A stretch of DNA of 64,000 nucleotides from a virus (lineage: Duplodnaviria > Heunggongvirae > Uroviricota > Caudoviricetes), in the IMG/VR virus record IMGVR_UViG_2937142334_000003. One strand, written 5' to 3'. Numbering within the stretch: position 1 is the stretch's first letter; every line of letters begins with the position of its first letter. The position numbers and the translations under genes were made by a program. Of the stretch, positions 55 to 58,566 are shown in pieces. The notes beneath the pieces are model-generated. The model saw only the letters and a list, made by a program, of their open reading frames with translations. It made no database searches and was not told where the DNA came from.

Positions 55-735
55 TATATAGTAATCAGCTATCACACAATCAAACACTCAATAACACCCA
101 TCCACACATATCACACCAAACACCTAATTAATACATATCACTTCACACCTTAACAACCTACCACACACCCAATAAAATACACTACACACCGCCTAATAAA
201 CTCACTAATTACACGCCCCCAATAACCCATAACCTAACTCACAAACACAAAATAAACACACCCAATAAATTCACTCACTTAATAACTTAATTCATACCCC
301 TAATACAATAAGCTAAATAACCCAATTTATTCACTGCATACAATACACAAACACACCGCATACATTACTCACTTAATCCATTAATGCATAACAATATATA
401 ACTACGTTACCCAATACGCACACATATACCATACAACGCTATACATTAACGCACTTGACAATCTAATATCTACAAATGTAAATCACTCACTAACTCAATA
501 CATTATATACATCAGTACACTATCATATTACATCACTATGTAACGCTACTCACTCACTAACCTATATACATGGACACGCATAACACTACACTGTATCACT
601 ATCATAACAACACTACGCACATTACTATATACACATCACTGTACTACCTATACACTGCTATACTATATACATCACTATGTGAGCGTTACCATATGACTGC
701 AATACAAAAGGGCAACACGCTAAACACTAACGCAT
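55..735. repeat. G-depleted low-complexity block (top strand almost only A/C/T) with degenerate ACACAC / CTCACT / ATACA-type repeats
   Basis: Direct reading shows ~680 bp with only a handful of G on the plus strand. ORF 570..764 inside it is a composition artefact. Confidence 0.8.
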
Positions 736-962
736 TACCCTATATCATTATCTTTATTTTTTAATTCCAGTAATTTATTATCAATCAAATTTTTTAAGAA
801 AATTAAATCTTCTTCAGTAGATTTTTTATTTATAAAGTTTACCGCCTTACTTTTATATTGATAATAATTTACTTTATCTTTATTTTTAGATTCCCACTTT
901 TTAACGCTATTTATTGCGCTTTCTTTTCGTTGTTTGTCTGTTAATTTTCTGGGCTTTGGCAC
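735..962 (-). CDS. small basic lysine-rich protein. Paralog of 2849..3079 (shared KKW/NYE..N.DK..YY..KS.A..FI motif).
   Basis: ORF track. Shares a motif with the 2849..3079 product. Confidence 0.4.
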   Translation of the reverse strand: MPKPRKLTDKQRKESAINSVKKWESKNKDKVNYYQYKSKAVNFINKKSTEEDLIFLKNLIDNKLLELKNKDNDIG

Positions 963-2378: not shown

Positions 2379-2597
2379 TAGTGATACATCTTGACCACTA
2401 ACACTCATCTGTATATATTATAACATCAATTGATTAAAAATAAACAAATATAGTCAAGAATAATCAAGGTTGTTTAGTTATATTTGTTAATTATGTTCAA
2501 GTATAGTCAATTATGTTCAATGATTGTGTAGTTTTATTTATGTTGAGTATGGTATAATTATATTTATTAGATTATATATCAAAAGGGAGTGTACAAC

Positions 2598-2759
2598 GTG
2601 GCTATTGAACCGCCTAATAAGTTTAAGTTTGGTGCAAAAGAAACTAAACCGCGAGAATACGACGAACCACAAGAAAAATCAGCAGAATACAAAAGGGGCT
2701 ATAAACAAGCTCTAATTGATATTCAAAAGGTTATTACTGATAAATTAGAACAATTATAA
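2598..2759 (+). CDS. small basic protein (53 aa, GTG start)
   Basis: RBS aaagggag 6 nt upstream of GTG. Terminator hairpin immediately downstream. Confidence 0.4.
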   Translation: MAIEPPNKFKFGAKETKPREYDEPQEKSAEYKRGYKQALIDIQKVITDKLEQL

Positions 2760-2762
2760 TAT

Positions 2763-2790
2763 ACATTATTAACAACCTTTACGGGTTGTT
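2763..2790 (+). terminator. rho-independent terminator (aacaacc-tttacg-ggttgtt-ttttatt)
   Basis: Stem-loop plus T-run. Confidence 0.6.
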
Positions 2791-2848
2791 TTTTATTATG
2801 TTATAATGTTTATAACTTACCATGTTATAAAGTGAAGAGGGTGAAGTC

Positions 2849-3079
2849 TTGGTTAGTGAAGCACAAAAACAAGCAAAAAAGAATTATGAAAAAGCAAATC
2901 CAGATAAAGCGTACTATTGGAAGCGTAAGAGTGAGGCGGGGGGCTTTATTCGCCCATCATCTAAAACAAGATTATATCAATTAATAAAATCTAATATAGA
3001 TATAAGAGATACTTATATCAGTGACTTGAAAGAGTTTAAAATTGAATTAGATAAGCGCTTAAAAGAATTACAAGGGTAG
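2849..3079 (+). CDS. small basic protein (TTG start). Paralog of 735..962.
   Basis: ORF track. RBS agagggtgaag. Shared motif with 735..962. Confidence 0.45.
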   Translation: MVSEAQKQAKKNYEKANPDKAYYWKRKSEAGGFIRPSSKTRLYQLIKSNIDIRDTYISDLKEFKIELDKRLKELQG

Positions 3080-3319
3080 TTATTATAACTACTCTTATTT
3101 TTTACAAAAAGTCGTTGACTTTATAACTTACGATGTTATAATTGAAATCGTCAAAAGGACAACGGCAATAAATACCAAGTATCAAAAATAATTTGAAAAA
3201 GGTATTGATAATTATAACATCGGAAGTTATAATAAAGCCGTAAAGTTGATTAGGACAATCACAATAAAGAGCAGTCATCGAACTAGCCTAGGTGATTAAA
3301 AATTAATCAAATTTACTTC

Positions 3320-3348
3320 TTGACAATTATAACTTACGAAGTTATAAT
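3320..3348 (+). promoter_or_regulatory. promoter P3: TTGACA - 17 nt - TATAAT with embedded operator-like palindrome
   Basis: Exact consensus hexamers at 3320..3325 and 3343..3348. Confidence 0.6.
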
Positions 3349-3443
3349 AAAAGCACAAACTTAATAAATGGATTGAAAGTGAGTTTACTTGAGTATCTAA
3401 CTTTGACTTCAAGGTCAACCGCTACAATTCAAAAAATTAAGTC

Positions 3444-3472
3444 TTGACAATTATAACATCGGAAGTTATAAT
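3444..3472 (+). promoter_or_regulatory. promoter P4: TTGACA - 17 nt - TATAAT with embedded palindrome
   Basis: Exact consensus hexamers at 3444..3449 and 3467..3472. Confidence 0.6.
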
Positions 3473-3599
3473 AAAGACACGATAAAGGAGCAAGCAATCG
3501 CAAGCCTTGAAGCGATTAAGAAATAAAAGGTTATCCTTATATAACTTACGATGTTATATAAAATGTTCAAACTAATTGGAAAGTTACCAATTCAAAAAA

Positions 3600-4100
3600 C
3601 GTTAGTAAGTCGCAACTCAATCAAGACTGTACCGAAAAGGGTCTGGATAAGGCGCTATTATCACCTAGGGTTATGGTGAAAGCTACCCAACAAGGCTATG
3701 CAACGGGTGAAAGATCAGGGCACGTGGAGAGCATGGTGCTAATTCTACAGACTGGGCGTAAACGTTACCGTTAAATAACGACCTCCGCACGGCGGGAAAT
3801 AATTACAACGGCGAACATTGACAATTAAATAAAACTTGTGAACTCTACCAAGGAAGAAGTGAAATGCTTAAAAATTGGATAGCGAACGCAAGGCGGGTTA
3901 TATGGTGGCAGCATATAAATCGTGAGTATGAACCATAAAAGGGGAAGATTAGCCTATTAAGTGGGGCTTGAACTGGACGGGGTTTATACATACAAACACT
4001 GACGACACTTAACGAACACTATTAATTGTTTTTAGAGAGCCTTATCAATACGATAAGACTCTATATAAAGCGATTAATAATAACCGCTGAAGCAAATTAG
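3600..4100 (+). ncRNA. ORF-free, GC-richer segment downstream of the promoter array. Candidate structured non-coding RNA or leader.
   Basis: No ORF >=60 aa. GC visibly higher than flanks. Only tiny peptide ORFs possible. Confidence 0.25.
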
Positions 4101-4115
4101 AAAGGTTTTGATATT

Positions 4116-4319
4116 ATGATGTCACAAAAGGAACTACAAAAATACGCTGAACAGGATTATAAGTTAGTTGATCCTGAATACATTAAGCAATTAGAACGGG
4201 ATAGCGAAAAACTAATCAAGTTTAAGAAGTACAGTATTTTAGCGATATTCATTGCAGTTATTGTTATTGTAGTGACCCTTCCACTTTTACGGGCACTATT
4301 GACGAACTTGCTAAACTAA
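4116..4319 (+). CDS. small protein with C-terminal transmembrane segment
   Basis: ORF track. RBS agaaagg. Confidence 0.5.
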   Translation: MMSQKELQKYAEQDYKLVDPEYIKQLERDSEKLIKFKKYSILAIFIAVIVIVVTLPLLRALLTNLLN

Positions 4320-4335
4320 TGTAATCTTACACTAT

Positions 4336-4352
4336 TAATCACAACAAAAATA
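4336..4352 (+). promoter_or_regulatory. conserved intergenic motif TTAATCACAACAAAAATA. Further copies at 17764, 20159, 26410, 34162 and a variant at 5115.
   Basis: 6 occurrences, all intergenic and directly upstream of plus-strand genes. Confidence 0.45.
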
Positions 4353-4382
4353 CTAAAATATATTAATCAAGGGGTAAATATC

Positions 4383-4745
4383 ATGACACAACAAAATACT
4401 ATTAAGACTTTTAACTACAAGAACAACGTACGCGGCGCACACATTTACACCCAAATTCTAGCCGAACTATTCTTGGCTGCACGTGATGCAAGCAAGCACG
4501 GCAATAACTGGGACGAACTCGATGAGTACTATCAAGCAATGACTGGTCAGGGTGATTATGCAGGTACAACATCAAGTGAACGTGCTGAATACATGCTAGA
4601 CCAACATGGTGACTTTATGACTGGATATGCAGAAGACTTTTTCAACGATTCAAAATACAGCTATGAATGGTTTGTAGAACAACATAACAAGGCGGTTGAA
4701 ATTGCAAAATCATTCAACCTTGAACACTTAGACATTATCAAATAA
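4383..4745 (+). CDS. hypothetical phage protein
   Basis: ORF track. RBS caagggg. Confidence 0.55.
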   Translation: MTQQNTIKTFNYKNNVRGAHIYTQILAELFLAARDASKHGNNWDELDEYYQAMTGQGDYAGTTSSERAEYMLDQHGDFMTGYAEDFFNDSKYSYEWFVEQHNKAVEIAKSFNLEHLDIIK

Positions 4746-4760
4746 CTGGAGGTAAGGACA

Positions 4761-4919
4761 ATGGATAAGAATACATTAATGAAAAAGGCAGACGTAATGA
4801 TTGAAATGATGGGCTGTGCTGAGTTTGTAGATGACCTAATGCGTGCCCTGGATAAGAAGGATCTACAAGATGCATTGGAATATATTGATCAATGCCGTGA
4901 ATTACACTTATTTGACTAA
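4761..4919 (+). CDS. hypothetical small protein (52 aa)
   Basis: ATG preceded by ggaggtaagg. Below the ORF-track cutoff. Confidence 0.35.
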   Translation: MDKNTLMKKADVMIEMMGCAEFVDDLMRALDKKDLQDALEYIDQCRELHLFD

Positions 4920-4953
4920 CCACACAATACAACTACTCGGAGGACAAATAACC

Positions 4954-5103
4954 ATGAAGAAAAACATTGCAATTGTAATGCTTGCTATTATCGCACTTGT
5001 ATGCTTTGGGGGCTGGGTACATTCAGCACAAGAAGCCGAGTCAAATTACAAAGTAATGATGAGCGAAGCAAAAATAATTCGCCAACTCAAAGGTATTGAA
5101 TAA
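4954..5103 (+). CDS. small membrane/secreted protein (N-terminal hydrophobic segment)
   Basis: Internal ATG of ORF 4843..5103, preceded by ggaggacaa. Confidence 0.45.
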   Translation: MKKNIAIVMLAIIALVCFGGWVHSAQEAESNYKVMMSEAKIIRQLKGIE

Positions 5104-5184
5104 AAGAAATTTTGCACTATTAATCACAACCACTATTAAAAATCTAACCAATCGAGAAAAACGTAAATAACGGAGGAAATAACA

Positions 5185-5625
5185 ATGAAGAACATTATTA
5201 ACAACAACGCTAATCAGACTCAAGCTATGGATTTATATATGGGGAGAAATGACGAAGTGCTAGTAAGCATGTTGCAAATCGCAAAAGAAAATAATATCGA
5301 TTTTCTGAAGTTTGAAGATGATTATATCTTTTTCATTAACTATCGTGAGATTGCTGGTATGAATCAAAGTACAGATTATAAGTACTTTATCACCATTGCA
5401 GAAGGAAGCATAAAAGAAGATGTTAACTTTGAAAGAGCATGGTTCTTAACGAATGATGATGAAAAAGTTGACAAAATAAAAGCTTATAAAACAGTTAATG
5501 AGTTGAACGAAGAAAAGAATTTAGGAATAAAAAACACTGATAATCTGGACGGGAAAATTTTTCCAGATAGATGGGATCGTGAGGAAATGGCTGTTTCTGG
5601 AATGTACTTAGGTCGTCCTAGTTAG
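5185..5625 (+). CDS. hypothetical protein
   Basis: ORF track. RBS acggaggaaat. Confidence 0.55.
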   Translation: MKNIINNNANQTQAMDLYMGRNDEVLVSMLQIAKENNIDFLKFEDDYIFFINYREIAGMNQSTDYKYFITIAEGSIKEDVNFERAWFLTNDDEKVDKIKAYKTVNELNEEKNLGIKNTDNLDGKIFPDRWDREEMAVSGMYLGRPS

Positions 5626-5693
5626 AACGAAAAGAATTTATCACTATTAATTACTGAACAGAAAATAAATTAACCAATTGGAGGAAATAGAAA

Positions 5694-5975
5694 ATGAGTA
5701 AATTAGACAAAATGAAAAACTACTTAAAGCAGGTAATCGAAATCAATTTTGATTATATCGACGAAATCAAACAGATGCCTCAAAGTCAAATTGATTTCAT
5801 GGGCGGAGTTGCTGAATGGTATGCAACTACAGGGTGTTCATCTTACTACACCGAAATAGTTAATGCGATCAAGTTTGCAGGTTACAAATATCCAAGTAGT
5901 GGAAGTGTTTGGGAAAAGGCAATACAGGTAAAAGATGAAATTGTTAGAGAAAAACTGAACTATTTATCAATTTAG
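5694..5975 (+). CDS. hypothetical protein
   Basis: Conserved leader aattggaggaaatagaaaatg. Confidence 0.55.
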   Translation: MSKLDKMKNYLKQVIEINFDYIDEIKQMPQSQIDFMGGVAEWYATTGCSSYYTEIVNAIKFAGYKYPSSGSVWEKAIQVKDEIVREKLNYLSI

Positions 5976-6055
5976 ATAAAATATGTATTTTATAAAGAAA
6001 TTTAGGTGCTCAAAACGTTGATATAACAGCATTTACAAATTGGAGGAAATAGAAA

Positions 6056-6382
6056 ATGAAAGAGTTTAAGAATGTTAATGAATTGAAAAAAGACAATCCA
6101 TCGTTAGCAAAAGAATTGCTTGAAATGTTTGATGAGGGCGAATGGCAAGAAAATGAACTGTACGTTTATGAAAGCCTAGCCGATTATGCTTATTACGAAT
6201 TAACCGAAGGTTGGTACGCAGATAAACATTTAGATCAAAAAGATTATAATGGTGCGCCTAATCCAATTGACTTTATTGATCTAAAGGCATTAGGACTTCA
6301 ATTATCGCGTACATGGGACGAAAGTATACATTACTTAACTAAAGAAAATTGGGTAGTTGAGACTGGTTATGGTTGGAATTAA
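6056..6382 (+). CDS. hypothetical acidic protein
   Basis: Same conserved leader. Confidence 0.55.
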   Translation: MKEFKNVNELKKDNPSLAKELLEMFDEGEWQENELYVYESLADYAYYELTEGWYADKHLDQKDYNGAPNPIDFIDLKALGLQLSRTWDESIHYLTKENWVVETGYGWN

Positions 6383-6406
6383 AAGAAAATTTAGGAGGAA
6401 ATTAAG

Positions 6407-6673
6407 ATGACTATCAAATTTGCAGGAATTGATGCAATTCCGGCCGATTGTTACATTTTGAATTTTGTTGTTAACGGCAATGATGAAACAATCTTTTGCC
6501 AAGGTATTGAGGAATTAATGTCCACTGTTTTGAGCGCCGAAGAATTTGATGATTGGTTAGGTGGTGAGGGTTTGCCACTACTCAACGGAGAGAAAATTAA
6601 TGACGAAGTTGAATATGCTGAAAAATATATAGATAAAACGGCAGATGACTTCTGCGTATTGTTCGAGAATTAA
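6407..6673 (+). CDS. hypothetical protein
   Basis: RBS ttaggaggaaat. Confidence 0.55.
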   Translation: MTIKFAGIDAIPADCYILNFVVNGNDETIFCQGIEELMSTVLSAEEFDDWLGGEGLPLLNGEKINDEVEYAEKYIDKTADDFCVLFEN

Positions 6674-6731
6674 GAAATTTTCATAACAAAAACACTATTA
6701 AAAATAAATTCACTATTAAGAGGTAATTATC

Positions 6732-7574
6732 ATGAATACACAAACACTATTAAACAATGTAGCAACTACTACAAACAACGACGCAATTATTGTAAACGCA
6801 AAAGAATTTTTGAAAGCTCTTAGGTTCGTCACGGTTGGTGTAAGCACGAAGAAGTCCCGGCCAACACTAATGAATATTCATGTGGGTATTAATGAGAATG
6901 AATTGGTCCTTGGCGCAACGGATTCACACAAATTGACGTATTTAAAGGTGGGGGCAAGTATTCCATCTGAGTTATCTAGTAAAGAATTTTTGGTTGATGG
7001 AAAGTTTGCTAAAAACTTATCTAAGACACCGACAAAACACGGGGAATATTTACTTATTAAGCCGGAATTTAATTTTAATGGACGGTCAGTTGGTAAGGTC
7101 ACATTCATTGACGGTAACAACGAAACATTTATTGATAATCATGGCAGCGATGATTTTTACCCTGAACTAGAACGAGTAATTCCAGATCGTACTTACTTCA
7201 GTTTTGAAACACGGAAAAAAGAATTATTGCCAGTGTTAAAAGAATTGAAGAAATTTACCAATGCAAAGGATGGCAATGTTGTTCGTCTTGAAATTCAAGA
7301 CAATTCGGGAGTAGTTATTGGCGTTGATGGCAACGACAGTAGTATTCAAGAAATTAAGCAAAAGAATTTATTTATTGATGAGAAGCATATTGTAGAAAAT
7401 GACAAGGGACTTAATTTTGAAATTAATTTTAATTTGAAGTATCTAATTGAATTGGTTCAGAAATGTGATAGCACAGAATTTCTAAAGTTCTCATTTAGTG
7501 GAACATTACGACCATTTACCTTTATTCGAGAAAATGCAGGAATTGGTGAAATTTGTCCTATTCGGACATACTAA
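6732..7574 (+). CDS. DNA polymerase sliding clamp (beta/DnaN-like, short form), putative
   Basis: N-terminal RPTLMNIHVGINENELVLGATDSHKL resembles the DnaN domain-I pattern (RPIL..v.le...l.l.aTD.e..l). Confidence 0.4.
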   Translation: MNTQTLLNNVATTTNNDAIIVNAKEFLKALRFVTVGVSTKKSRPTLMNIHVGINENELVLGATDSHKLTYLKVGASIPSELSSKEFLVDGKFAKNLSKTPTKHGEYLLIKPEFNFNGRSVGKVTFIDGNNETFIDNHGSDDFYPELERVIPDRTYFSFETRKKELLPVLKELKKFTNAKDGNVVRLEIQDNSGVVIGVDGNDSSIQEIKQKNLFIDEKHIVENDKGLNFEINFNLKYLIELVQKCDSTEFLKFSFSGTLRPFTFIRENAGIGEICPIRTY

Positions 7575-7599
7575 AAGAATTTTTGGTGGTGATTTTAAA

Positions 7600-7782
7600 T
7601 TGAGATTTCTAATTGACACTGGTGACGGATTTAGAGAACGAGTTAATGAACAAGAATTAATAAAGTGGGGCGAGTCATTTGGAATTGGACTAGAGATGAC
7701 TTTAACCGAGGCAATTCAATCACTAGAGAACGTCGGATATAAAGTGCAAAGGTTAGAAGAAAAAGAAATTTTAGGAGAGTGA
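7600..7782 (+). CDS. hypothetical small protein. TTG start after ggtggtga. ORF track alternative 7498..7782 overlaps the upstream gene.
   Basis: ORF track frame. Start chosen to avoid a 77-nt overlap. Confidence 0.3.
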   Translation: MRFLIDTGDGFRERVNEQELIKWGESFGIGLEMTLTEAIQSLENVGYKVQRLEEKEILGE

Positions 7783-7997
7783 AAGCTATGTTTATGGAAT
7801 TAGTTACCTGGGAAGAAGGAAGTAATGTATATCAATGTTGGTTTAACAAGAAGAAATTAATCAAGGTATTGAATAGTTTGGGGGTTAGTAATTGGAAACT
7901 ATTCCTGTATAACTACCAGGCTGATGATACACAAATGGTTATGGACGAGTTTGAGAAGCGTGGTTGGAAATATAAGAAAGAAACACTGATGTTTTAA
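7779..7997 (+). CDS. hypothetical protein
   Basis: ORF track. Confidence 0.45.
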   Translation: MKAMFMELVTWEEGSNVYQCWFNKKKLIKVLNSLGVSNWKLFLYNYQADDTQMVMDEFEKRGWKYKKETLMF

Positions 7998-8029
7998 GGT
8001 TAAAAAGAAAATTTTGGAGGGCGAATAAA

Positions 8030-8287
8030 ATGGAAATTTTAACAGGTAAAAAAGTATTTATTGTAAAAGCTATGTTAGGTGTAACAAAAGGAATTATTGG
8101 AGTGTTTGATAATCAAGAGGCTGCTGAAAGGTATGCTGAAGAGAAATATCGAGTTTGGACTGATGATAATAATTTTACCTGGGCAGAAAATAAAACGGCA
8201 CAAACAGTTAACATCAAAAATGAAAATCAGGAAACACAATTAAAAGGACACCTAATCATTTCTCAATATAATGTTCGGAGTAAATAA
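8030..8287 (+). CDS. hypothetical protein, paralog A (about 55 percent identical to 8941..9192)
   Basis: Alignment by eye: VFDN..AAE.YAEEKYR.WTDD..FTW...KTAQ. Confidence 0.6.
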   Translation: MEILTGKKVFIVKAMLGVTKGIIGVFDNQEAAERYAEEKYRVWTDDNNFTWAENKTAQTVNIKNENQETQLKGHLIISQYNVRSK

Positions 8288-8328
8288 AACAGATATTTTA
8301 GAAAAGGTAAGAATTGGAGGAAATTATC

Positions 8329-8631
8329 ATGATAAAAACAAAATTACGTACAGAATTAGTAAGTTTGGTAGAAACAGCATATGGCGAGGCTATCTTAACA
8401 ATGAAGCGCGGCGAAGAAGAAAAACAACTCCTTATCGCTGAATGTGGATTGTCAGACGTTGTTTACGAGTCGTCAGTGGATTATTACTTAGATAACGAGC
8501 ATTGGACGCAAGAAAAATTTGACGACTATTGGGAAAACGGCGGCGAGGATAAAGAAATTGACAACTATGTTGATGGCATTGTTGATTTTTATGACGACGA
8601 TTTGACTTGGGAAGAACTTGAAACACTGTAA
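8329..8631 (+). CDS. hypothetical acidic protein. Start at the ATG after ggaggaaattatc.
   Basis: ORF track 8314..8631. Leader duplicated at 9203..9231. Confidence 0.5.
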   Translation: MIKTKLRTELVSLVETAYGEAILTMKRGEEEKQLLIAECGLSDVVYESSVDYYLDNEHWTQEKFDDYWENGGEDKEIDNYVDGIVDFYDDDLTWEELETL

Positions 8632-8673
8632 TTTACATTGTTGATATCCGTTAATGATTTGGAGGAAATTATC

Positions 8674-8916
8674 ATGAATTATGTAGTAACTATTCAAAAT
8701 AACAAATTTACTTTTAAAAATAGCGGTTGGGATACTGAAAAAATGTGGAGTGATTTAATCAACGCATTACAATCAATGAAACTTGCGAGCGAAGTTGAAA
8801 CAGTTGAATTTTCTAAGTTCAACGAAGGTCAATTAGGATTTGACGGAGAGGTTTCTCAACTATTGGAATATATAAAAGACGAAGGCATTATCACAAGTTG
8901 GCATAAAGAAGATTAA
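8674..8916 (+). CDS. hypothetical protein. Start at the ATG after ggaggaaattatc.
   Basis: ORF track 8638..8916. Confidence 0.5.
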   Translation: MNYVVTIQNNKFTFKNSGWDTEKMWSDLINALQSMKLASEVETVEFSKFNEGQLGFDGEVSQLLEYIKDEGIITSWHKED

Positions 8917-8940
8917 AAGCCCTTAAAGGAGAAAATTATC

Positions 8941-9192
8941 ATGAAAATTTTAACAAGGCAAAAGGTTTGGTTGGTTAAGTCAGAATTAGGTAAAACATGG
9001 GGCGTCATTGGAGTATTTGATAATGTGCTTGCTGCTGAGAAATACGCAGAAGAAAAATATCGTAAGTGGACTGACGATGAGGAGTTTACTTGGAATCGAG
9101 GAAAAACAGCACAAGAAATTCACATTGAAACTTCAACACAATCGTTAGACGGTAAGTTGATTATTTCAGAATATCCTGTTCGGTCTAAGTAA
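8941..9192 (+). CDS. hypothetical protein, paralog B of 8030..8287
   Basis: See paralog A. Confidence 0.6.
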   Translation: MKILTRQKVWLVKSELGKTWGVIGVFDNVLAAEKYAEEKYRKWTDDEEFTWNRGKTAQEIHIETSTQSLDGKLIISEYPVRSK

Positions 9193-9231
9193 ATAAACAT
9201 TTTAGAAACGTAAGAATTGGAGGAAATTATC

Positions 9232-9411
9232 ATGAGGTTATACAACGAAGAAATTATTATTAACGGGCGGAAATTATCACCACTTGAAGTGACTGTCGTT
9301 CTTGAGGCGTTAAAGGATAGCGCAGACAATGGTGTATGTAATGACTACACTCAATATGAATTAGGAATTAGTAAAGATAAGCAAACAAAGGTCTTAGAAC
9401 AATTTGCTTAA
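9232..9411 (+). CDS. hypothetical small protein
   Basis: ORF track 9217..9411, ATG after the duplicated leader. Confidence 0.4.
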   Translation: MRLYNEEIIINGRKLSPLEVTVVLEALKDSADNGVCNDYTQYELGISKDKQTKVLEQFA

Positions 9412-9507
9412 GTGGTAAAACATGTCCTTTAGAAAAGGTAAAAGGTGGAGAAAATAATTACTTGTGATTACCTTGCGAGTGTGAGAAAATTACTATGAGG
9501 TGATAAT

Positions 9508-9846
9508 ATGGATATTACTAAGACAAGAAAACAAGGAAATGCAGTTATGGTTACCGTTCCTAAAGCATTTAATGTTAGCGAGGGAACAAAGTTACGCCCA
9601 CGATTAACAGACAAAGGAATTTTCTATGAGTTCGTTAACGAAGACGATTTTTTTGACTTTGATGAGGATATTTTGAAAGATTTGGTAGCTCAAGGATATG
9701 AGGGTCAAAAGCTTATTAGCAAGTTTAAGGAAATGAAAAAAGATATACCTACTGCAATGGATAAATTGATTGATGCAGCAGAGAAAGAAGCTGCTAATAG
9801 CAATCCGATGAGTAGAGAGGAGTTTGAGAAGGAAATTGGCCTATAG
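9508..9846 (+). CDS. AbrB/MazE (SpoVT-AbrB fold) family antitoxin-like protein
   Basis: N-terminal RKQGNAVMVTVPKAF matches the looped-hinge-helix consensus (r.vGNS..vtIPke). Confidence 0.55.
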   Translation: MDITKTRKQGNAVMVTVPKAFNVSEGTKLRPRLTDKGIFYEFVNEDDFFDFDEDILKDLVAQGYEGQKLISKFKEMKKDIPTAMDKLIDAAEKEAANSNPMSREEFEKEIGL

Positions 9847-10129
9847 TGTTATCCCTACCAAACGAGTCTTGAAATATTTGAAGAAAATAAAAAATAGGCA
9901 ACTGAAAAAGAATTTTACCGCTACAATTTATGACACGATAGCAAACGATCCATATGTAGGAAATGAAAAGCATGGCGACTTAAGTAGCTATTTTGCTTAT
10001 GGATTTAAATACGATCGTGTTGATTATCGAGTTGCTTATACTATTAATGATAATGATGAAATTGTCATCGTAGTTTTAGCAGGCCCGCACGAGAATTTTT
10101 ATAAAGAATTGAAGAAAATAGTAAACTAA
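9836..10129 (+). CDS. RelE/ParE-family type II toxin (TTG start, MAYSVIPTKRVLKYLKK...)
   Basis: YDRVDYRVAYTINDNDEIVIVVLAGPHENFY matches the RelE/ParE C-terminal pattern. Overlaps the stop of the upstream antitoxin. Confidence 0.6.
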   Translation: MAYSVIPTKRVLKYLKKIKNRQLKKNFTATIYDTIANDPYVGNEKHGDLSSYFAYGFKYDRVDYRVAYTINDNDEIVIVVLAGPHENFYKELKKIVN

Positions 10130-10208
10130 TAAGCTCGTCACTTTACAATTTGTGATGGGCTTACATTGGTAAAACACGTCTTTTACAAAAGAAATTTTAA
10201 TCGAAGTT

Positions 10209-10269
10209 AAAAGACTTCATTTGAATTATGTTTAGCGAGTAAACTAGGCAGCATTCAAATGAAGTCTTT
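10209..10269 (+). terminator. 17-bp perfect inverted repeat (aaagacttcatttgaat ... attcaaatgaagtcttt) with 27-nt loop, followed by ttattaca
   Basis: Seen in sequence. Lies between two TA-like modules. Confidence 0.4.
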
Positions 10270-10362
10270 TATTACAAGGAGGGACTTGTTATTGTAAATA
10301 GTTTGATTAAATCACCTTATTTGAGTATAATATAATAAATTATAAGTACGAGGTGAGTTAAA

Positions 10363-10653
10363 ATGGGTATTAGCGTGAAGGACAAAAAGACACAGGCAAG
10401 AGTGCAAGCTAATGTTGATGCTGATGTCAAGGATATGGCAGAAAGCGTAATTAAAGCGGTTGGACTAACACCTACAGTAATAATTAATGGTCTTTATAGA
10501 AAAATTGCGACTACAGGAAAAATTCCTTTAGATTTTTCTCTAACTTCGGAACAAATGGCAGACTTACAACTTCAAAATGCTGTAAAAAAGTTACCAGTGA
10601 AGAAGTTAAGAACGAAGAAAGAAATAGAGGACTTTTTCAACGATGAAGATTAA
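10363..10653 (+). CDS. RelB/DinJ-family antitoxin-like protein
   Basis: RVQANVDADVKDMAESVIKAVGLTPTVIINGLYRKIATTGKIPLDF resembles the DinJ/RelB pattern (r.d..lK..A...l...Gls.s..i..l...v.....lPF). Confidence 0.5.
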   Translation: MGISVKDKKTQARVQANVDADVKDMAESVIKAVGLTPTVIINGLYRKIATTGKIPLDFSLTSEQMADLQLQNAVKKLPVKKLRTKKEIEDFFNDED

Positions 10654-10966
10654 CGAGATTTATACGGCTTATGTAGCATGGCAAAACGGTGGTAAACGTC
10701 GTCCTATACTTATTATTGAAACGGAAGAAAATAATTTTTCTTTCCTAAAAGTAACAAGTAAGTATAAGAACAAATCAGAGAAAATTAAAAAGCTTTATTA
10801 TCCTTTGCAAGACTGGAGAGATGAAGGTCTAAGAAAACAATCATATATTGATACGGGAGCTTTGTTAAGTATTTCAAGAAGTGAAGTATCGTTAAATTAC
10901 GTAGGCCGGTTAACCCGAAAAGATAAAAGTGGATTGACGAGATTTATTGAAAACCGTGATTGGTAA
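10643..10966 (+). CDS. putative toxin partner (MazF/PemK-like fold suggested by GGKRRPILII and a later GL.K.S motif). Assignment weak.
   Basis: 4-nt overlap with the upstream antitoxin. Size 107 aa. Confidence 0.35.
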   Translation: MKINEIYTAYVAWQNGGKRRPILIIETEENNFSFLKVTSKYKNKSEKIKKLYYPLQDWRDEGLRKQSYIDTGALLSISRSEVSLNYVGRLTRKDKSGLTRFIENRDW

Positions 10967-10996
10967 AACGAAGGCTTTATATATTTAGGAGGATTT

Positions 10997-11170
10997 ATGG
11001 ATAGCGTAGAAAAAACGAGATTAGAAAAAGATATTATGAGTGTTTTAAAAACACCTGCTGGAAATAAAGAAAAATTACAGGTAATTATGACTATCATTAA
11101 AGGACATGACAATAACCTGTTAAATAAAGTTGGTAATCAAATTGGTGTTGTACTTGATATGAATAAATAG
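10997..11170 (+). CDS. hypothetical small protein (57 aa)
   Basis: RBS ttaggagga. Below track cutoff. Minus-strand ORF 10897..11112 considered spurious. Confidence 0.35.
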   Translation: MDSVEKTRLEKDIMSVLKTPAGNKEKLQVIMTIIKGHDNNLLNKVGNQIGVVLDMNK

Positions 11171-11272
11171 ATCGGTTAGCTTAAAGTGAATATTAATAAG
11201 GTAGCGCTGTGAAGTAATTTTCATGGTGCTTTTTGATTTTAAAATTTAATTCAATACATGGAGGAATATGAA

Positions 11273-11383
11273 ATGAATTTAATTAATCGGATCGGTGAAG
11301 AATTAGGCTTTGCCTTTAATTTTGTAAAGGTCGGGTTATTGTTAACGTGCTTATTGGTAGCAATTGCAGATTTATTAATGTAG
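11273..11383 (+). CDS. 36-aa hydrophobic peptide (MNLINRIGEELGFAFNFVKVGLLLTCLLVAIADLLM)
   Basis: RBS ggaggaatatgaa. Confidence 0.3.
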   Translation: MNLINRIGEELGFAFNFVKVGLLLTCLLVAIADLLM

Positions 11384-11395
11384 GAGGGTAGAATT

Positions 11396-11746
11396 ATGAA
11401 TAGAGGAAGATTAATTCAAGAAGAATATAATTTTTTCGAGATTATGTGTAATGAATTGGGTGTACGAGGACAATTTGCTCATGATAACAATGGTTTGGAA
11501 TATATGGTAATAATTGCACCAAACGGAGCAATTAGAGCTGTTCCATGTCGAGTAGAATGGCTAGATTTTTTAACAGATGGACTTGATAGAAATGAGGCAA
11601 TCTATGAAATACGAAAAGATTTATTAACTAAGTTCATGTCAGGTGGCTGTGGAGTGGATACATCACCAACGGAGCTAACGTATAAAGATCGAAAATTTTT
11701 CAATGCATTTCGACAAGGTGTTTTGAAATTAATGGGAAGGATTTAG
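11396..11746 (+). CDS. hypothetical protein
   Basis: RBS gtaggaggg. Confidence 0.5.
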   Translation: MNRGRLIQEEYNFFEIMCNELGVRGQFAHDNNGLEYMVIIAPNGAIRAVPCRVEWLDFLTDGLDRNEAIYEIRKDLLTKFMSGGCGVDTSPTELTYKDRKFFNAFRQGVLKLMGRI

Positions 11747-11751
11747 AGAAA

Positions 11752-11880
11752 ATGCGATTCATTATATTTGATACAGTGGTACTATTTGTAGCGTTGATTG
11801 GCAGTATTATAGAGAAACGAAAAATTGATAAGCAAGAAAGAAAAAGGGGCGGTCGTCATTCAAAACGATCGTCTTTTTAG
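11752..11880 (+). CDS. 42-aa peptide with N-terminal TM segment and basic tail
   Basis: Immediately upstream of the mazF-like gene. Possible cognate antitoxin or small membrane protein. Confidence 0.3.
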   Translation: MRFIIFDTVVLFVALIGSIIEKRKIDKQERKRGGRHSKRSSF

Positions 11881-11898
11881 ATAACGGAGGTAAATATT

Positions 11899-12245
11899 AT
11901 GAGTAAAATTTTATATAAACAGGGAGACGTTCTTTATATGGACTTTAGTCCGGCGGTTGGTTTTGAAATGGATGGAAAACATCCAGCAGTAATTATTTCA
12001 AACGATAGATACAATCGCAATTCAGGCTATTTGATGGTTGTACCAATTACATCTGGGGGACTTATTTCAATGGTTACGTTAATTTGGTTGGGTACGAAAA
12101 AATTTATGGGCGAGTAAATGCTACACAGATTCATTGTTATTCTCGTGAAAGAGTGCGTTCTTTACCAATGGATAAATTACGACTAGAAGATTTCAACAAG
12201 GTTCAAAGACAACTTAGTAAAGTAATTAATGATTTTTGTATATAG
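11899..12245 (+). pseudogene. mazF: MazF/PemK-family toxin gene interrupted by a frameshift at a G5 tract (12055..12059)
   Basis: Frame 1 gives KQGDVLYMDFSPAVGFEMDGKHPAVIISNDRYNRNSGYLMVVPITS (classic MazF N-terminus) then stops. Frame 3 continues ...ATQIHCYSRERVRSLPMDKLRLEDFNKVQRQL, matching the MazF C-terminal pattern (EQIRTIDK.RL). Confidence 0.65.
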
Positions 12246-13778: not shown

Positions 13779-15160
13779 CTTTATAAAAACTGTATTTCTT
13801 TTCAGCGGTAGTACATTAAACCATAGTCACAAAAAGAAAGCGGTAATAATTAATGATTAAAGGAATTAAATTGCGACTATATCCCAATCAAATGCAACAA
13901 AACCTGTTATTTCAAATGTTTGGTAATACCCGCTTTGTATGGAATCAGATGTTAGCAATGGCTAAGGCAAGGTACAAAAATAATCCAAGTTCTCGATTTA
14001 TAGATGAATATGGTATGAATTACTTTCTTAAACCGTTAAAAGAAGAATATCCATTCTTGAAAAACAGTGATTCTACTAGTTTGCAAGTGACAAACCATAA
14101 CTTAGCTCAGGCCTTTAAAATGTTATTTCAACATAAAGGTGGTTATCCTCATTTTAAGAGTCGCAAGATCAGTAAGCAATCATATACGGGCCGCAATGGG
14201 TGTCGTGTAGAGGCAAAAAGGCGAATAAAATTGCCTAAAATTGGGAGCATACGTACTAGTAAGACTACGCATCTCATTGGTTGTAACATCAAGCGCTACA
14301 CCGTCACTTATGAACCGACTGGTCGTTACTATGTATCATTTCAGGTCGAAACTGAAATTAATCAGTTACCGAAAACAGGAGATGCAGTTGGTATAGATGT
14401 TGGGCTTGCGAACTTGGCGATTACTTCTGATGGTCAAAAATATGGTACTTTCGATGCCTGTTGGGTAGAAAAACAAGCACAAATATGGCAATCAAAGTTT
14501 AGTAAGCGTAAATATCGTGCGATGGTGGCAGTACGTCACTGGAATCATAATCATAAAGCCTTTCAGATGGAATTAAGTGACTATCAGAATTGGCAACGTG
14601 CGAGAATTCAAAAATCACGCTATCAAAAGAAAATAGTAGATAAACGAAAAGATTATTTGCATAAGGTAACAACAGATTTAGTTAAAAAATACGATGTGAT
14701 TGTCATTGAGGATTTGAAAATCAAGAATCTTCAAAAGAATCATCATTTGGCTAAATCAATTGCCAATGCGAGTTGGTATCAATTTAGGACCATGTTGGAA
14801 TATAAATGTGCGTGGTATGGAAAGAAGCTAATAACTGTTAAGCCAAACTATACTAGTCAAATTTGTAGTCAATGTGGCTATCACAGTGGTAAGAAACCAC
14901 TAGAAATTCGTGAGTGGATGTGTCCAAATTGTGGCACCCATCACGACCGAGATATTAATGCAGCAGTTAATATCTTGAAACAAGGATTAAAGCTAATTGG
15001 CTAGGGACTAGCCGTGGTAAAAGAATGAAGTTCTGTAAGTTAGGTATTCAGAATACTGATATAACATCCTAAATACTACTTCGTGTTCCCAGAAACATAC
15101 CGACTTTAGTTGATATGTAGTTCACAAAATCCGCATTTGTTATAAGAGATATGGAGGAAT
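13779..15160 (+). mobile_element. IS200/IS605-family tnpB-only element (IS1341-like). Boundaries approximate.
   Basis: Contains the tnpB gene. An 18-bp perfect IR (13592..13609 vs 13780..13797) brackets the upstream terminator region. tnpA absent. Confidence 0.5.
13853..15004 (+). CDS. tnpB: IS605-family TnpB (OrfB) RNA-guided nuclease-like protein
   Basis: N-terminal [28 protein letters not shown]. RuvC-like [22 protein letters not shown]. Zn finger CSQCGY..CPNCG. Confidence 0.85.
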
Positions 15161-21289: not shown

Positions 21290-22634
21290 AAATGTCGTGA
21301 TAAATATAAGATGGTGCCCGATAAATCTTTGAGAGGGGGTGATACAAACGATAAGAACAGAAAAAGTTAGATTATATCCTAATAGCATAATGAAACAACA
21401 GTTAAAGGATCTTTGTGACTATCGTCGCTATTGTTGGAACAAGGGTTTGGCGCTATGGAACGATATGTATGATGAGTCTGTCTTGCTAGGCAATAAGAAA
21501 TTACGACCCAACGAAAGGAAGGTTCGTAATGAACTTGTAACTAACAAACAAGATTGGCAATATCTATATTCGTCTCGTTGCCTACAATTAGCGATTTCTG
21601 ATCTTGGAAAGGCTTGGGAAAACTTTTTTAATAAAGCGCAATCCGATTGGGGAATACCCAAATTCAAATCTAAAAAAGCTCCTAAACAAGGCTTCAAAAC
21701 TGATCGAGCAAAGATTGTTAATGGGAAGCTGCGATTGGATAAGCCTAGAGGAATTAAAGAATGGTCGGATATTAAGATTGCAGGTGTAAAATCTCTAGAT
21801 GGTGACTTAAAGGTTGTATCAATTTACCGTGAGAACGGCAAATATTGGGCATCACTGCCTTTTGAAGTGACGATTAAGCATAAGCCTAAAACGGAGCAGA
21901 AGACAGCAATTGATGTCAATGTTGGACACTTTAATACTCCAGGTGGTCAAATTACCATTATTCCAAAGCGATTAGATAGGCTTTATAAACGGATTAAGCA
22001 TTACCAACGCCAATTAGCTAAGAAACGAATTGTTAATGGTAAACAAGCATACCAATCAAATAATTACGTTAAAACGAGAGCCAAGTTACAACGTGATTAT
22101 CGTAAAGTAACTAATATTCAGCGTGATATTATTCAAAAGTTTACTACTAAGCTAGTCGATGATTACGATCAAATCGTAATTGAAGATCTGGATGTTAAAC
22201 AAATGCAAATGAGTCATGTCGCTTCTAAGGGTTTACAACGTTCGTTGTTTGGTTACTTTCGCCAAGTTCTTACATACAAATGCGAGTGGTATGGCAAAGA
22301 ATTGATCCTCGCCAATCAGCATTATCCAAGTACGCAACGCTGTTCACAGTGTGGGTACATTAAAACTGGTGAGGATAAGATTACTCTAGCTGGGAATCAG
22401 AAATATCATACTAAGCATAACGAGTACATATGTTATAAGTGTGATGCAGTAATGGATAGAGATGAAAATGCTGTAATGAATTTATTACAGTTAGCATAAA
22501 TAAGAATAAATATTAACGGGGTGGGCTACATCCTTAAACTATCAGAGTTGGTCAATGTCATTACCCTCTAGTTAGGATATGGGAATACCGATGTTGACGG
22601 TAGTAAATAAAATTAAGAAAGGAAAAGCTATATA
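21290..22634 (+). mobile_element. IS607-family tnpB-only element, copy A. Conserved right end 22518..22634.
   Basis: Left-end motif taaatctttgagagggggtga. Right end nearly identical to copies at 30883..30999 and 59826..59935 (reverse complement). Confidence 0.6.
21339..22499 (+). CDS. tnpB: IS607-family TnpB
   Basis: VRLYPN..LCDYRRYCWN. AIDVNVGHFN, IVIEDLDVKQM, CSQCGY...CYKCDAVMDRDENAVMNL. Confidence 0.85.
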   Translation: MIQTIRTEKVRLYPNSIMKQQLKDLCDYRRYCWNKGLALWNDMYDESVLLGNKKLRPNERKVRNELVTNKQDWQYLYSSRCLQLAISDLGKAWENFFNKAQSDWGIPKFKSKKAPKQGFKTDRAKIVNGKLRLDKPRGIKEWSDIKIAGVKSLDGDLKVVSIYRENGKYWASLPFEVTIKHKPKTEQKTAIDVNVGHFNTPGGQITIIPKRLDRLYKRIKHYQRQLAKKRIVNGKQAYQSNNYVKTRAKLQRDYRKVTNIQRDIIQKFTTKLVDDYDQIVIEDLDVKQMQMSHVASKGLQRSLFGYFRQVLTYKCEWYGKELILANQHYPSTQRCSQCGYIKTGEDKITLAGNQKYHTKHNEYICYKCDAVMDRDENAVMNLLQLA

Positions 22635-29654: not shown

Positions 29655-30999
29655 AAATGGTAGAACATTTGGGCGTATCTATTAAATCTTTGAAAGGTGG
29701 TGAGATAAATGATCCGAACAGAAAAAGTTAGGTTGTATCCCAATACGACAATGAAACAAGCCATAGATGCCTTGTGTGACTATCGACGTTATTGCTGGAA
29801 CGAAGGCTTGGCGTTGTGGAATGATATGTATGAAGAGTCTAAGTTGATGGACAATAAGAAGTTACGACCAAATGAGTACAAGGTCCGTAATGAACTTGTT
29901 GCTAATAAACAAGATTGGCAATATCTATATTCGTCTCGTTGCCTACAATTAGCGATTTCTGATCTTGGAAAGGCTTGGGAAAACTTTTTCGACAAAGCCC
30001 AACCAGATTGGAGTATGCCAAAATTTAAGTCTAAGAAGACTCCAAGACAAGGTTTTAAGACTGACCGAGCCAAGATTGTTAATGGTAAACTCCGATTAGA
30101 TAAGCCAAGAGGGGTTAGTGGCTGGACAGATATTAGGATCTCGGGCGCTAAGCCCCTAGATGGCGAATTAAAAGTCATATCGATCTATCGTGAGAATGGC
30201 AAATACTGGGCGTCATTACCTTTTGAAACATCGGTTGATACAAAGTCTAAAACAGGTCAAAGTACAGCTATCGATGTTAACGTGGGCCACTTTAACTATC
30301 CCGATGGTCAGATTAATGTTTTGCCAGTAAAATTACAAAAGCTCTACAAGCGGATCAAGCATTACCAACGCCAATTGGCCCGTAAAAGGATTACGAATGG
30401 CAAAATGGCAACGCAAAGCAATAATTACATGAAAACGAGAGCCAAGTTGCAGCGCGATTATCGCAAGGTTGTCAACATTCAATCCGATCTTTTACAAAAG
30501 TTCACGACTAAGTTAGTCACCAATTACGACCAGATCGTTATCGAAGATCTTGCCGTCAAGAAAATGATGATGGATCACGTAGCATCGAAGGGTATGCAGC
30601 GGTCGTTGTTTAGCAAGTTTCGTCAAATTCTAACCTATAAGTGTGATTGGTACGGTAAGAAACTAATTCTGGCAAATAGATGTTATCCAAGTACACAGCG
30701 CTGTTCGCAATGTGGACATCTCAAGACTGGCGTGGACAAGATTACTCTAGCCGGCAACCAAAAACATCGTACTAAACACAATGAGTATATCTGTTACGAA
30801 TGTGGTTTGGTTATGGATAGAGATGAAAATGCCGTCATGAACTTATTACGGTTGGCGGCGGCGTAAAAAGAAAAATGCTTTTGGGGTGGGCTACACCCTT
30901 AGGCCATCAGAGTTGGTCAATGTCATTACCCTCTTGTTGGGCTATGGGAATACCGATGTTGACGGTGGTAAATAAAATTAAGAAAGGAAAAGCTATATA
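29655..30999 (+). mobile_element. IS607-family tnpB-only element, copy B
   Basis: Same left-end and right-end motifs as copy A. A ~90-bp stretch (29910..29990) is identical to 21551..21630. Confidence 0.6.
29709..30866 (+). CDS. tnpB: IS607-family TnpB
   Basis: Homolog of 21339..22499. Confidence 0.85.
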   Translation: MIRTEKVRLYPNTTMKQAIDALCDYRRYCWNEGLALWNDMYEESKLMDNKKLRPNEYKVRNELVANKQDWQYLYSSRCLQLAISDLGKAWENFFDKAQPDWSMPKFKSKKTPRQGFKTDRAKIVNGKLRLDKPRGVSGWTDIRISGAKPLDGELKVISIYRENGKYWASLPFETSVDTKSKTGQSTAIDVNVGHFNYPDGQINVLPVKLQKLYKRIKHYQRQLARKRITNGKMATQSNNYMKTRAKLQRDYRKVVNIQSDLLQKFTTKLVTNYDQIVIEDLAVKKMMMDHVASKGMQRSLFSKFRQILTYKCDWYGKKLILANRCYPSTQRCSQCGHLKTGVDKITLAGNQKHRTKHNEYICYECGLVMDRDENAVMNLLRLAAA

Positions 31000-58194: not shown

Positions 58195-58566
58195 TTAAAT
58201 CACGTGTAATTCTTCAAATAAGTCTGCTGCTGGGAACATGCGGAATGCTGGATGCGCACGTAAGAAATCACGCAGTTCTGTTGCATTCATTTCAACATAC
58301 TCATAGTTATCTTGGTCTCCACCTTCTGTACAAACCAAAAATTCCAATTCCGTTGCATCAAAATCTGGATCTTCAAAATCATAGCCTTCTGGATTTTGCA
58401 CAACAAGTGGATACATATGGAATCCTTTCCAGAAGAATAACGGTTTCTTACGTTTGTCGTCTTGATCTTCTGAATAGCCCTGGGTTGTAAAAATGTAGCC
58501 GTAAATATTATCTGGGCTCAATTTCATATCAATGTTTTCTTGTGTTTCGTTATTCATTAGCATCAT
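58195..58566 (-). CDS. hypothetical acidic protein
   Basis: ORF track. Confidence 0.45.
   Translation of the reverse strand: MMLMNNETQENIDMKLSPDNIYGYIFTTQGYSEDQDDKRKKPLFFWKGFHMYPLVVQNPEGYDFEDPDFDATELEFLVCTEGGDQDNYEYVEMNATELRDFLRAHPAFRMFPAADLFEELHVI

Follow-up and report, generated by a model that had tools for sequence, protein, structure and literature searches.

Why would a mobile element set a row of near-consensus promoters, each with a palindrome in its spacer, in front of a kilobase that encodes no protein? The locus that raises this question lies at positions 3115-4100 of a 64-kb stretch of DNA (hereafter the window) from a Caudoviricetes record of IMG/VR, IMGVR_UViG_2937142334_000003. 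A first-pass annotation had read it as five exact TTGACA-17-TATAAT promoters with embedded palindromic operators, and had offered three explanations: tandem short RNAs, an operator bank for one repressor, or a strong multi-promoter leader for the early operon that starts at 4116. We read the region 2500-4500 directly and collected about 30 distinct versions of it for comparison. We conclude that the palindromes are the predicted operators of gp76, a 76-residue protein encoded just upstream (2849..3079, + strand) that we assign to the Aca13 family of repressors. The first-pass annotation had overlooked this adjacent gene, together with the host and phage-plasmid nature of the element, the non-promoter status of the fifth copy and the swappable modules within 3600-4015.

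The promoters and their predicted operators

The array is real, and chance is excluded as its cause. Sigma-A-type hexamer pairs, 16-18 bp apart, begin at 3115, 3205, 3320 and 3444 on the + strand. The last two, P3 (3320..3348) and P4 (3444..3472), are the exact TTGACA-17-TATAAT (12/12 matches) that had been described for all five; P1 (3115..3142, TTGACT-16-TATAAT) and P2 (3205..3233, TTGATA-17-TATAAT) each match at 11 of 12 positions. Sites with at least 11/12 matches number eight in the window, both strands together, against a mean of 4.1 per window in composition-matched Markov simulations. Half of the eight, both 12/12 sites among them, fall on the + strand inside 360 bp.

The palindrome is rarer still. 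Copies of TATAAC-N7-GTTATA (19 bp) start at 2811, 3122, 3213, 3328, 3452 and 3540, and there is no further copy in the window; a relaxed form of the pattern gives 12 strand-matches where 0.11 are expected. In full the palindrome reads TTATAACWT-N3-AWGTTATAA. It does sit in the spacers of P1 to P4, as had been noted (O1, 3122-3140; O2, 3213-3231; O3, 3328-3346, whose arms form a perfect 10-bp palindrome; O4, 3452-3470), but not wholly between the hexamers: its right arm runs into the -10. Could the left arms serve as -10 elements of divergent minus-strand promoters? This was ruled out, as no matching -35 was found. A natural variant of P3 (in L209, L213 and L214) has GTTATGAT in place of GTTATAAT as its -10 and operator arm, which weakens promoter and operator together.

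Two copies of the palindrome stand outside a consensus promoter. The one within 3531-3560, previously counted as a fifth promoter, is an operator (O5, 3540..3558) with no acceptable -35 and a degenerate -10. It lies about 65 nucleotides (nt) past the P4 -10 and switches type like the other operators; it may be a roadblock, a cooperativity site or a decayed promoter unit. The other is the sixth, operator-like copy that had been placed near 2812. Its exact place is 2811..2829 (O0, TATAACTTACCATGTTATA), after the -10 of the gp76 gene and ahead of the ribosome-binding site, where it is predicted to be autoregulatory. A search for a dispersed regulon like that of P1 C1 was negative: neither the window nor 61 kb of a relative with a different operator type (type E, below) holds extra operator copies.

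Operator types and the predicted repressor gp76

What do the relatives keep, and what do they change? The -35 and -10 hexamers and the inter-promoter sequence are kept, and the central 12-14 bp of each spacer sorts into seven types: A (TATAAC-N7-GTTATA, the type of the window), B (TATAGCGTTMACGCTATA), C (TATAAACGTAAGCTTATA), D (TATAGG-N6-CCTATA), E (TATAACCACACAGTTATA), F (TATAGACTTAAGTCTATA) and G (TATAACTTTCAAAGTTATA). The operators are 19 bp long in types A and G and 18 bp long in types B to F. Every site of one array, O5 included, shares one type, and no mixed array was seen. Moreover, the half-sites and spacing of O0 equal those of the array operators in all seven types. Selection for recognition by a specificity factor would be expected to act in just this way, replacing the palindromes alone, in concert, and preserving their dyad symmetry. 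Relatives have between one and five promoter units per array, which fits unequal crossing-over between homologous units.

The variants of gp76 pair one to one with the operator types. When the open reading frames (ORFs) within about 5 kb on each side of the loci were clustered, gp76 was the sole cluster both exclusive to a type and complete for it, as seen in types A (6 loci), E (4), C (3) and B (2). Similarity among gp76 proteins also follows similarity among operators: types A, G and E share the outer half-sites TATAAC/GTTATA, and their gp76 proteins are the closest in sequence. DNA carrying TATAACTTACGAAGTTATA is the predicted target of gp76.

One metagenomic contig, L207 (JGI 3300006213, Ga0081460_1000313), carries two complete modules 3 kb apart at 3700-8250, each made up of repressor, array, leader and the gene for the 67-residue protein that follows the leader. 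The first is of type A and the second of type C. Either the assembly has fused two co-resident elements into a chimera, or the module was truly duplicated in tandem and the copies have since diverged in specificity.

Which kind of protein is gp76? It is all-helical: its AlphaFold model has four helices (pLDDT 95.8) and no helix-turn-helix (HTH). A ribbon-helix-helix repressor of the Arc/Mnt/CopG kind was rejected, since the model has no beta strand. A Pfam scan of gp76 found nothing, and PHROGs places it in phrog_2277, a family without annotated function. Compared with PDB sequences, the gp76 family profile matches residues 90-128 of 8ye6_B ('A32', AcrIIA32) with E = 0.0012. A search with the paralogue of gp76 in the window (735..962, minus strand) led to an Aca13-like protein of the Streptococcus uberis prophage Javan617 (Javan617_0002), to which the gp76 family profile aligns in hhalign with a probability of 96.1% and E = 3.2e-9. 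The promoter of that prophage gene, TTGACT-ATTATATGGTACATGTAC-TATAAT, holds in its spacer a TATA...TATA palindrome, TATGGTACATGTACTATA, that overlaps the -10, the same design as in the window array.

Aca13 is the C-terminal domain of AcrIIA32 (Song et al., NAR 2025, PMC12282945). It has no HTH and uses a coiled helix; its target is an 18-bp inverted repeat in the -35/-10 spacer of acr promoters, which it represses in reporter assays, with K92, W99, R107 and S111 as key residues (PMC12282945). These four align to Q6, Y13, A21 and K25 of gp76. Position 13 is aromatic throughout the gp76 family, and positions 21 and 25 vary by operator type. An inverted repeat of about 18 bp between -35 and -10 is likewise present at P1 to P4, and gp76 shares the helical module without HTH. 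Our assignment of gp76 as an Aca13-family repressor thus rests on the co-varying types, the presence of O0 at its own promoter, the homology to Aca13 and the matching Javan617 promoter. The earlier suggestion of an operator bank for one repressor is strongly supported by this co-change of the operators and the adjacent small protein, and by the kinship of that protein with Aca13.

Might a host factor, or a distal factor of the element, bind the operators instead, with gp76 co-varying through linkage alone? Such a factor could lie beyond the flanks that we screened. Nevertheless, a host factor cannot account for seven specificities in one host species, a homologue of gp76 is proven to bind inverted repeats, and the cognate palindrome is found at gp76's own promoter in every type. 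We consider this explanation very improbable.

The gp76 gene is set up as a unit of its own. Its promoter (2778..2807, + strand) combines an extended -10 (TGTTATAAT; -10 at 2802-2807) with a weak -35, and an equivalent TGnTATAAT promoter stands ahead of the gene in relatives. At its end, a hairpin resembling an intrinsic terminator (3072..3096, + strand) parts the gene from the promoter bank. In most relatives the gene is driven by a 33-nt extended -10 promoter (TGTAGTTTTATTT.TGTTGAGTATGRTATAATT), copies of which occur in the window at 2116-2148 and 2527-2559 (94% identical). There, an extra 56-residue gene with a terminator of its own (2589..2759) is inserted between the 33-nt promoter and gp76. 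The window also encodes a second Aca13-family protein, 34% identical to gp76 and likewise a member of phrog_2277, in a small minus-strand operon (735..962). No cognate palindrome was found for this paralogue.

The element, its early operon and the leader

The element is, by its sequence, a phage-plasmid of Limosilactobacillus reuteri. Searches with the small flanking proteins found dozens of relatives in L. reuteri and L. caviae, on contigs of 107-139 kb, and seven L. reuteri plasmids of 52-139 kb in PLSDB share the region, among them p53608_1 of strain ATCC 53608, whose operator is of type F. One related plasmid encodes ParM, RepC, replication initiator A (RepA), HU, terminase, holin, XhlA and a 9.1-kb tape measure protein. 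The p53608 pI plasmid has been described as a RepA/ParA megaplasmid that carries tRNAs and an incomplete prophage and has almost all of its genes on the same strand (PMC4667477). The window itself encodes clamp-like, DnaB-like helicase and RecD-like helicase proteins, nucleotide kinases, TnpB copies and an MmeI-like restriction-modification enzyme, as well as tRNAs and a tmRNA. It is the partition, replication and virion genes of the relative (ParM, RepA, terminase, holin, tape measure), the gene content of the window and the literature on p53608 pI that lead us to call the element a phage-plasmid. Near and distant DNA searches with the region found no relative among INPHARED phages. Scans with the operator pattern gave single chance matches only in genome contigs and one true relative (L114) amid about 120 chance matches in metagenomes; an IMG/VR candidate, L003, was rejected as a chance match within a gene.

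The array stands at the head of a co-directional gene block of about 40 kb. The first gene of the early operon (4116..4319, + strand) encodes a 67-residue protein with a hydrophobic C-terminal segment. In many relatives the second gene is ArdA, which is absent from that place in the window. The genes right behind the bank (4116-12000 in the window; L205-L258 among the relatives) are highly mosaic between relatives, and include ArdA of 174-359 residues, Fic, PemK/MazF, YoeB/YefM, HigBA-like pairs and many ORFans, a pattern typical of anti-defence or accessory islands.

We think it probable that the locus is an entry-phase control region: its promoter bank would fire when the element enters a cell and would then be closed by an Aca13-family repressor that also regulates its own gene. 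An entry burst followed by shut-off, as in acr-aca loci, is suggested by ArdA as second gene in many relatives, by the variable downstream genes and by the Aca13 precedent. On this proposal, gp76 would be made from its own extended -10 promoter and would bind, presumably as a dimer, the 18-19-bp TATA...TATA palindromes. Upon entry into a repressor-free cell, P1 to P4 would fire at full strength, giving a very high rate of initiation. The bank would then transcribe a 0.5-kb leader, the small membrane protein, ArdA in many relatives, and then the clamp and replication genes. As gp76 accumulated it would occupy the spacer operators and O5, exclude RNA polymerase and turn the bank off; O0, which covers the start site of the gp76 gene, would provide autoregulation. 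In the established plasmid state the bank would remain repressed, and the seven operator/repressor types would prevent cross-repression between related elements.

Alternatively, gp76 could be a maintenance (immunity) repressor that silences the lytic early arm for the life of the lysogen, with the types as heteroimmunity groups and the bank as the master lytic switch. The element carries virion and lysis genes, and the replication and nucleotide-metabolism genes behind the bank run co-directionally for about 40 kb. The independent, autoregulated promoter of gp76 would suit steady expression, and several specificity types among close relatives resemble immunity regions. However, Aca13, the homologue that has been characterised, represses anti-defence promoters in a feedback loop and is no lysogeny repressor, no antirepressor or inducer-sensing domain is evident in the 76-residue protein, and plasmid replication may need part of the early arm to be expressed. 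Immunity as the principal role of gp76 is a possibility to which we give somewhat less than an even chance. Entry and immunity roles can also coexist, and permanent repression in the plasmid-prophage state is compatible with entry control as a second role of gp76.

Several points weigh against the proposed entry control by gp76. Both the binding of gp76 to the array and its regulation of the promoters are predictions. The match to the PDB entry is borderline by itself (E = 0.0012) and covers the N-terminal helical hairpin only. Adjacency of gp76 to the array could account for part of the co-variation through linkage, and the type screen spans about 5 kb per side, so a distal co-varying factor is possible. 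In known loci the aca gene usually follows the acr gene within one operon; the gp76 gene lies upstream of the bank and has a promoter and a terminator to itself. No known Acr was recognised near the bank, and Pfam searches of the window genes after 4116 found no recognisable anti-defence gene. Finally, entry control leaves the use of four promoters instead of one without an explanation.

What, then, is the ORF-free stretch that separates the bank from the operon? No ORF of at least 60 residues occurs in 3100-4115 on either strand, just as the first-pass annotation had it; the longest, of 58 residues, is at 3102..3278 on the minus strand. Smaller candidates at 3551..3679, 3673..3774, 3683..3790 (minus strand) and 3845..3991 (minus strand) were rejected as genes for want of plausible ribosome-binding sites. 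The same holds for mini-ORFs after P2 and P3, and the frames after P2 are broken in relatives. The stretch is indeed GC-richer, with 0.45-0.49 at 3600-3900 against about 0.30 around it. Between 3140 and 4116 we found no terminator-like site. With four co-oriented promoters, no terminator and a conserved junction to the gene at 4116, the anatomy supports the proposal of a multi-promoter leader for the early operon.

The lack of terminators bears on the other suggestion, tandem small-RNA genes with their own promoters, in which the palindromes would be hairpins or processing sites in read-through transcripts. The inter-promoter units are conserved and hold hairpins of the general form AAUCRC...GYGAUU with compensatory changes. 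In the P2 unit the hairpin AAUCAC...GUGAUU (3257..3297, + strand) appears in the alignment as AATCAC/GTGATT, AATCGC/GCGAT and AATTAC/GTAATT; in the P4 unit the conserved hairpin AAUCGC...GCGAUU (3496..3517, + strand) has a compensatory AAUCAC/UGAUU variant in L256. Successive operators are mutually complementary and could pair in RNA, and there is a mir-like match between two operators. Independent small-RNA genes would each be closed by a terminator, and none closes any unit within 3140-4116; we therefore do not treat the units as separate genes. Moreover, each palindrome precedes the start site of the promoter that holds it, changes together with gp76 and recurs at the gp76 promoter, and the homologue Aca13 is a proven binder of such repeats. 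Small-RNA genes are thus an improbable account of the array.

Comparison of the relatives shows that the leader is built from fixed segments and exchangeable modules. Four segments are common to all relatives: a hairpin, AATTGGAAAGTTACCAATT, at 3574-3592; the junction CGTTAGTAAGTCGCA that follows it and completes the conserved start of the leader (3574..3614, + strand); the junction GAACTTTGAAAAC; and a tail (4016..4115, + strand) with an imperfect hairpin at 4029-4069 and the ribosome-binding site of the first early gene. Between them are two slots. Slot X holds in the window the GC-rich module X1 of about 215 nt (3614..3828, + strand) and in relatives the non-homologous X2 or X3. It ends in a junction that is degenerate in the window (GAACATTGACAA, about 3817-3828) and reads GAACTTTGAAAA or GAACTTTGAAAAC in relatives. 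Slot Y (3829..4015, + strand) holds Y1, the core of which is nearly invariant among its carriers, and in relatives Y2 instead. Alternative modules in one slot cannot be aligned with each other, each module is found at this locus only, and X, Y and operator type assort independently.

Two of the modules, X2 and Y2, have RNA base-pair covariation. For X2, RNAalifold gives 47 pairs, nine of them with compensatory double changes, and many G-U pairs on the + strand. The paired positions are complementary in 94.7% of cells, against 32-45% when the partners are slid. Among 500 shuffles, none reached the observed covariation score and three reached the count of double-change pairs, with the structure derived from the same eight sequences that were used for testing it. 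In Y2, one helix occurs in three pairing variants, GCGG/CCGC, GUGG/CCAC and GCAG/CUGC, and so does a second, CAAC/GUUG, CGGC/GCCG and CGGC/GUCG. X1 and Y1 yield no covariation signal because they are nearly invariant among their carriers, and their minimum free energies show little excess stability (z-scores of +0.76 and -1.75). The leader is probably a modular structured RNA, in the case of X1 and Y1 by analogy with the sister modules. Common ancestry of X1, X2 and X3 as one RNA family was not borne out: the X2 covariance model detected only the shared flanks in X1 and aligned weakly to X3 (E = 0.14). The Rfam search that had been advised for the ORF-free region matched no family, with scores far under gathering; for none of the modules did Rfam 15 give a match, its models for C4 antisense RNA, tracrRNA, CRISPR-DR, riboswitches, ROOL and GOLLD included.

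Alternatively, the GC-rich stretch 3600-4015 could act as DNA rather than as functional RNA. It could be, for example, a transcription-activated origin or a packaging site, or the debris left when cassettes were exchanged by recombination. X1 has no excess folding energy and Y1 a weak one, and both modules are almost invariant and lack covariation support. The region is 1-3 kb from a strand switch and a change in GC skew. The partition and replication genes of relatives are a further 5-10 kb away, beyond the region where the window starts. By contrast, the sister modules X2 and Y2 occupy the same slots and show compensatory base-pair changes, the stretch is inside a transcription unit without a terminator, and the junction sequences are conserved. 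A role at the DNA level is therefore unlikely in our judgement.

If the leader does act as RNA, candidate roles are action in cis (stability, antitermination or attenuation), processing to stable RNAs, and RNA counter-defence, the last by analogy with the Racr and vsgRNA elements known from Acr/Aca loci. Antisense pairing within the leader of the c4/CI kind was rejected, as the only perfect complements are 10 nt long and about as many as chance would give. A bolder idea, which we put forward as speculation with a modest chance of being right, is that the X and Y slots hold interchangeable structured RNAs that act as anti-defence or entry factors, made in a burst from the Aca13-gated bank and exchanged as cassettes. 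If true, this would mean at least five new RNA classes (X1, X2, X3, Y1 and Y2) and a new way to package RNA counter-defence.

Two complementarities that involve X1 were observed in passing. The sequence ATCACCTAGG in X1 (3660-3669), which occurs also in the otherwise unrelated X2 of the L114 type, is perfectly complementary to CCTAGGTGAT in the P2-unit hairpin (3287-3296). Likewise, GGATAAGGC in X1 (3645-3653), a motif with similar counterparts in X2 and X3, could pair with the 5' arm of the hairpin in the conserved tail (4039-4046). Such pairings may be long-range contacts in the RNA, but matches of such lengths are expected by chance.

Elsewhere in the window, positions 60-730 are non-coding and CA-rich, with a skew of C over G (GC skew down to -0.95) and degenerate short repeats. 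At the matching place the IMG/VR relative L002 has long tandem runs of CATACATA and CACTCACT, and in relatives the counterpart lies between the array side and a partition operon of the ParM/Alp7A type; this may be a centromere or iteron region. Rfam 'Transposase-1 RNA' matches (69-75 bits) occur at 22539-22597 (+), 30904-30962 (+) and 59856-59914 (-). The first is just 3' of a confirmed IS605 OrfB/TnpB ORF (21339..22499) and the others just 3' of ORFs of similar size (29709..30866 and, on the minus strand, 58550..59749); a further TnpB ORF is at 13853..15004. These RNAs are probably the element-end or guide RNA of the transposons. In a tRNA cluster at 34331-40438, ARAGORN finds six genes (Arg, two Trp, Asn, Gly and Ile), and Rfam finds the same plus three tRNA-model matches. 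A full tmRNA with the tag ANNHRVTALAA is encoded at 39659-40036, an unusual cargo for a plasmid-borne element. Lastly, the Listeria small RNA rli28 has a match at 49870-50045 (-) of 70 bits (gathering 45), just downstream of a 1031-residue restriction-modification gene of the MmeI family (50287-53382, -).

Comparison with known systems

How does this locus compare with what is already known? Tandem strong promoters occur as A1-A2-A3 in the early region at the left end of T7 and as P1-P2 of rrn. In both, as in the window, strong host-polymerase promoters in series feed one transcription unit with a long leader; they differ in having no embedded operators and no dedicated element-encoded repressor. 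In the immI region of phage P22, Arc acts at Pant through an operator between -35 and -10. The likeness to the predicted gp76 system is a small dimeric repressor, an operator in the spacer of a strong early promoter and a second, autoregulated site. However, Arc and Mnt are ribbon-helix-helix proteins, in contrast to the gp76 model without beta strand, and P22 has a single promoter rather than a bank.

In acr-aca operons a strong acr promoter is reportedly switched off by an Aca repressor, and the proposed entry burst followed by feedback repression of a very strong promoter is alike. Most Aca proteins have an HTH and are encoded downstream of the acr gene on the same transcript, whereas gp76 is a non-HTH protein encoded upstream. 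The closest likeness is to Aca13, the AcrIIA32 C-terminal domain (PMC12282945): a homologous helical non-HTH module for DNA binding, an 18-bp TATA...TATA-type palindrome in the promoter spacer that overlaps the -10, strong promoters ahead of anti-defence genes (candidate ones here), and one repressor (a predicted one here) for several promoters. The differences are as telling. Aca13 has one promoter on each side, whereas the gp76 system has four tandem co-directional promoters and an extra operator. The predicted repressor is a stand-alone protein whose gene lies upstream and has a promoter, operator and terminator to itself. One element family contains seven co-varying specificity types, the carrier is a 110-140-kb phage-plasmid in a Limosilactobacillus host, and a 0.5-kb non-coding leader intervenes before genes among which a known Acr was not recognised (ArdA is present in relatives).

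The leader has its own parallels. RNA anti-CRISPRs (Racr, vsgRNA and vscaRNA) occur in Acr/Aca loci (preprint 10.64898/2026.06.01.729453). These RNAs, like the leader or immunity RNAs of phage-plasmids and satellites (P1 c4, P4 CI and N15 CA), are structured non-coding RNAs placed between an early promoter and early or anti-defence genes, and their variants differ between related elements. The window leader is unlike them in having no Rfam match (C4, tracrRNA or CRISPR-DR), no terminator, and complementarity limited to 10-nt matches at the level of chance. With the Rfam CRISPR-DR and tracrRNA models, the only ones used for this purpose, no CRISPR repeat-like or tracrRNA-like element was recognised in it.

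These comparisons suggest a function for phrog_2277, a family whose members in L. reuteri megaplasmids and in phages of Streptococcus and Listeria are so far labelled 'hypothetical'. They would also make Aca13, described only in 2025, a widespread type of repressor that acts in promoter spacers far outside the acr loci of Streptococcus. By 'guilt by Aca', the genes that follow the bank become candidate anti-defence genes. Seven natural and presumably orthogonal repressor/operator pairs on consensus promoters should be useful genetic parts for Lactobacillales, and should offer a clean setting in which to learn how a helical module without an HTH recognises DNA. Moreover, this phage-plasmid family is common in a widely used probiotic species, and its entry transcript would open with conserved, swappable and unclassified modules.

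The locus thus joins the recently described to the new. Aca13-type control of inverted repeats in promoter spacers is a known kind of regulation. What is new is the four- to five-fold tandem promoter bank, the stand-alone, upstream and autoregulated repressor gene that is predicted to control it, the seven co-varying specificities within one Limosilactobacillus phage-plasmid family, and the swappable non-coding leader modules, which have no match among known RNA families.

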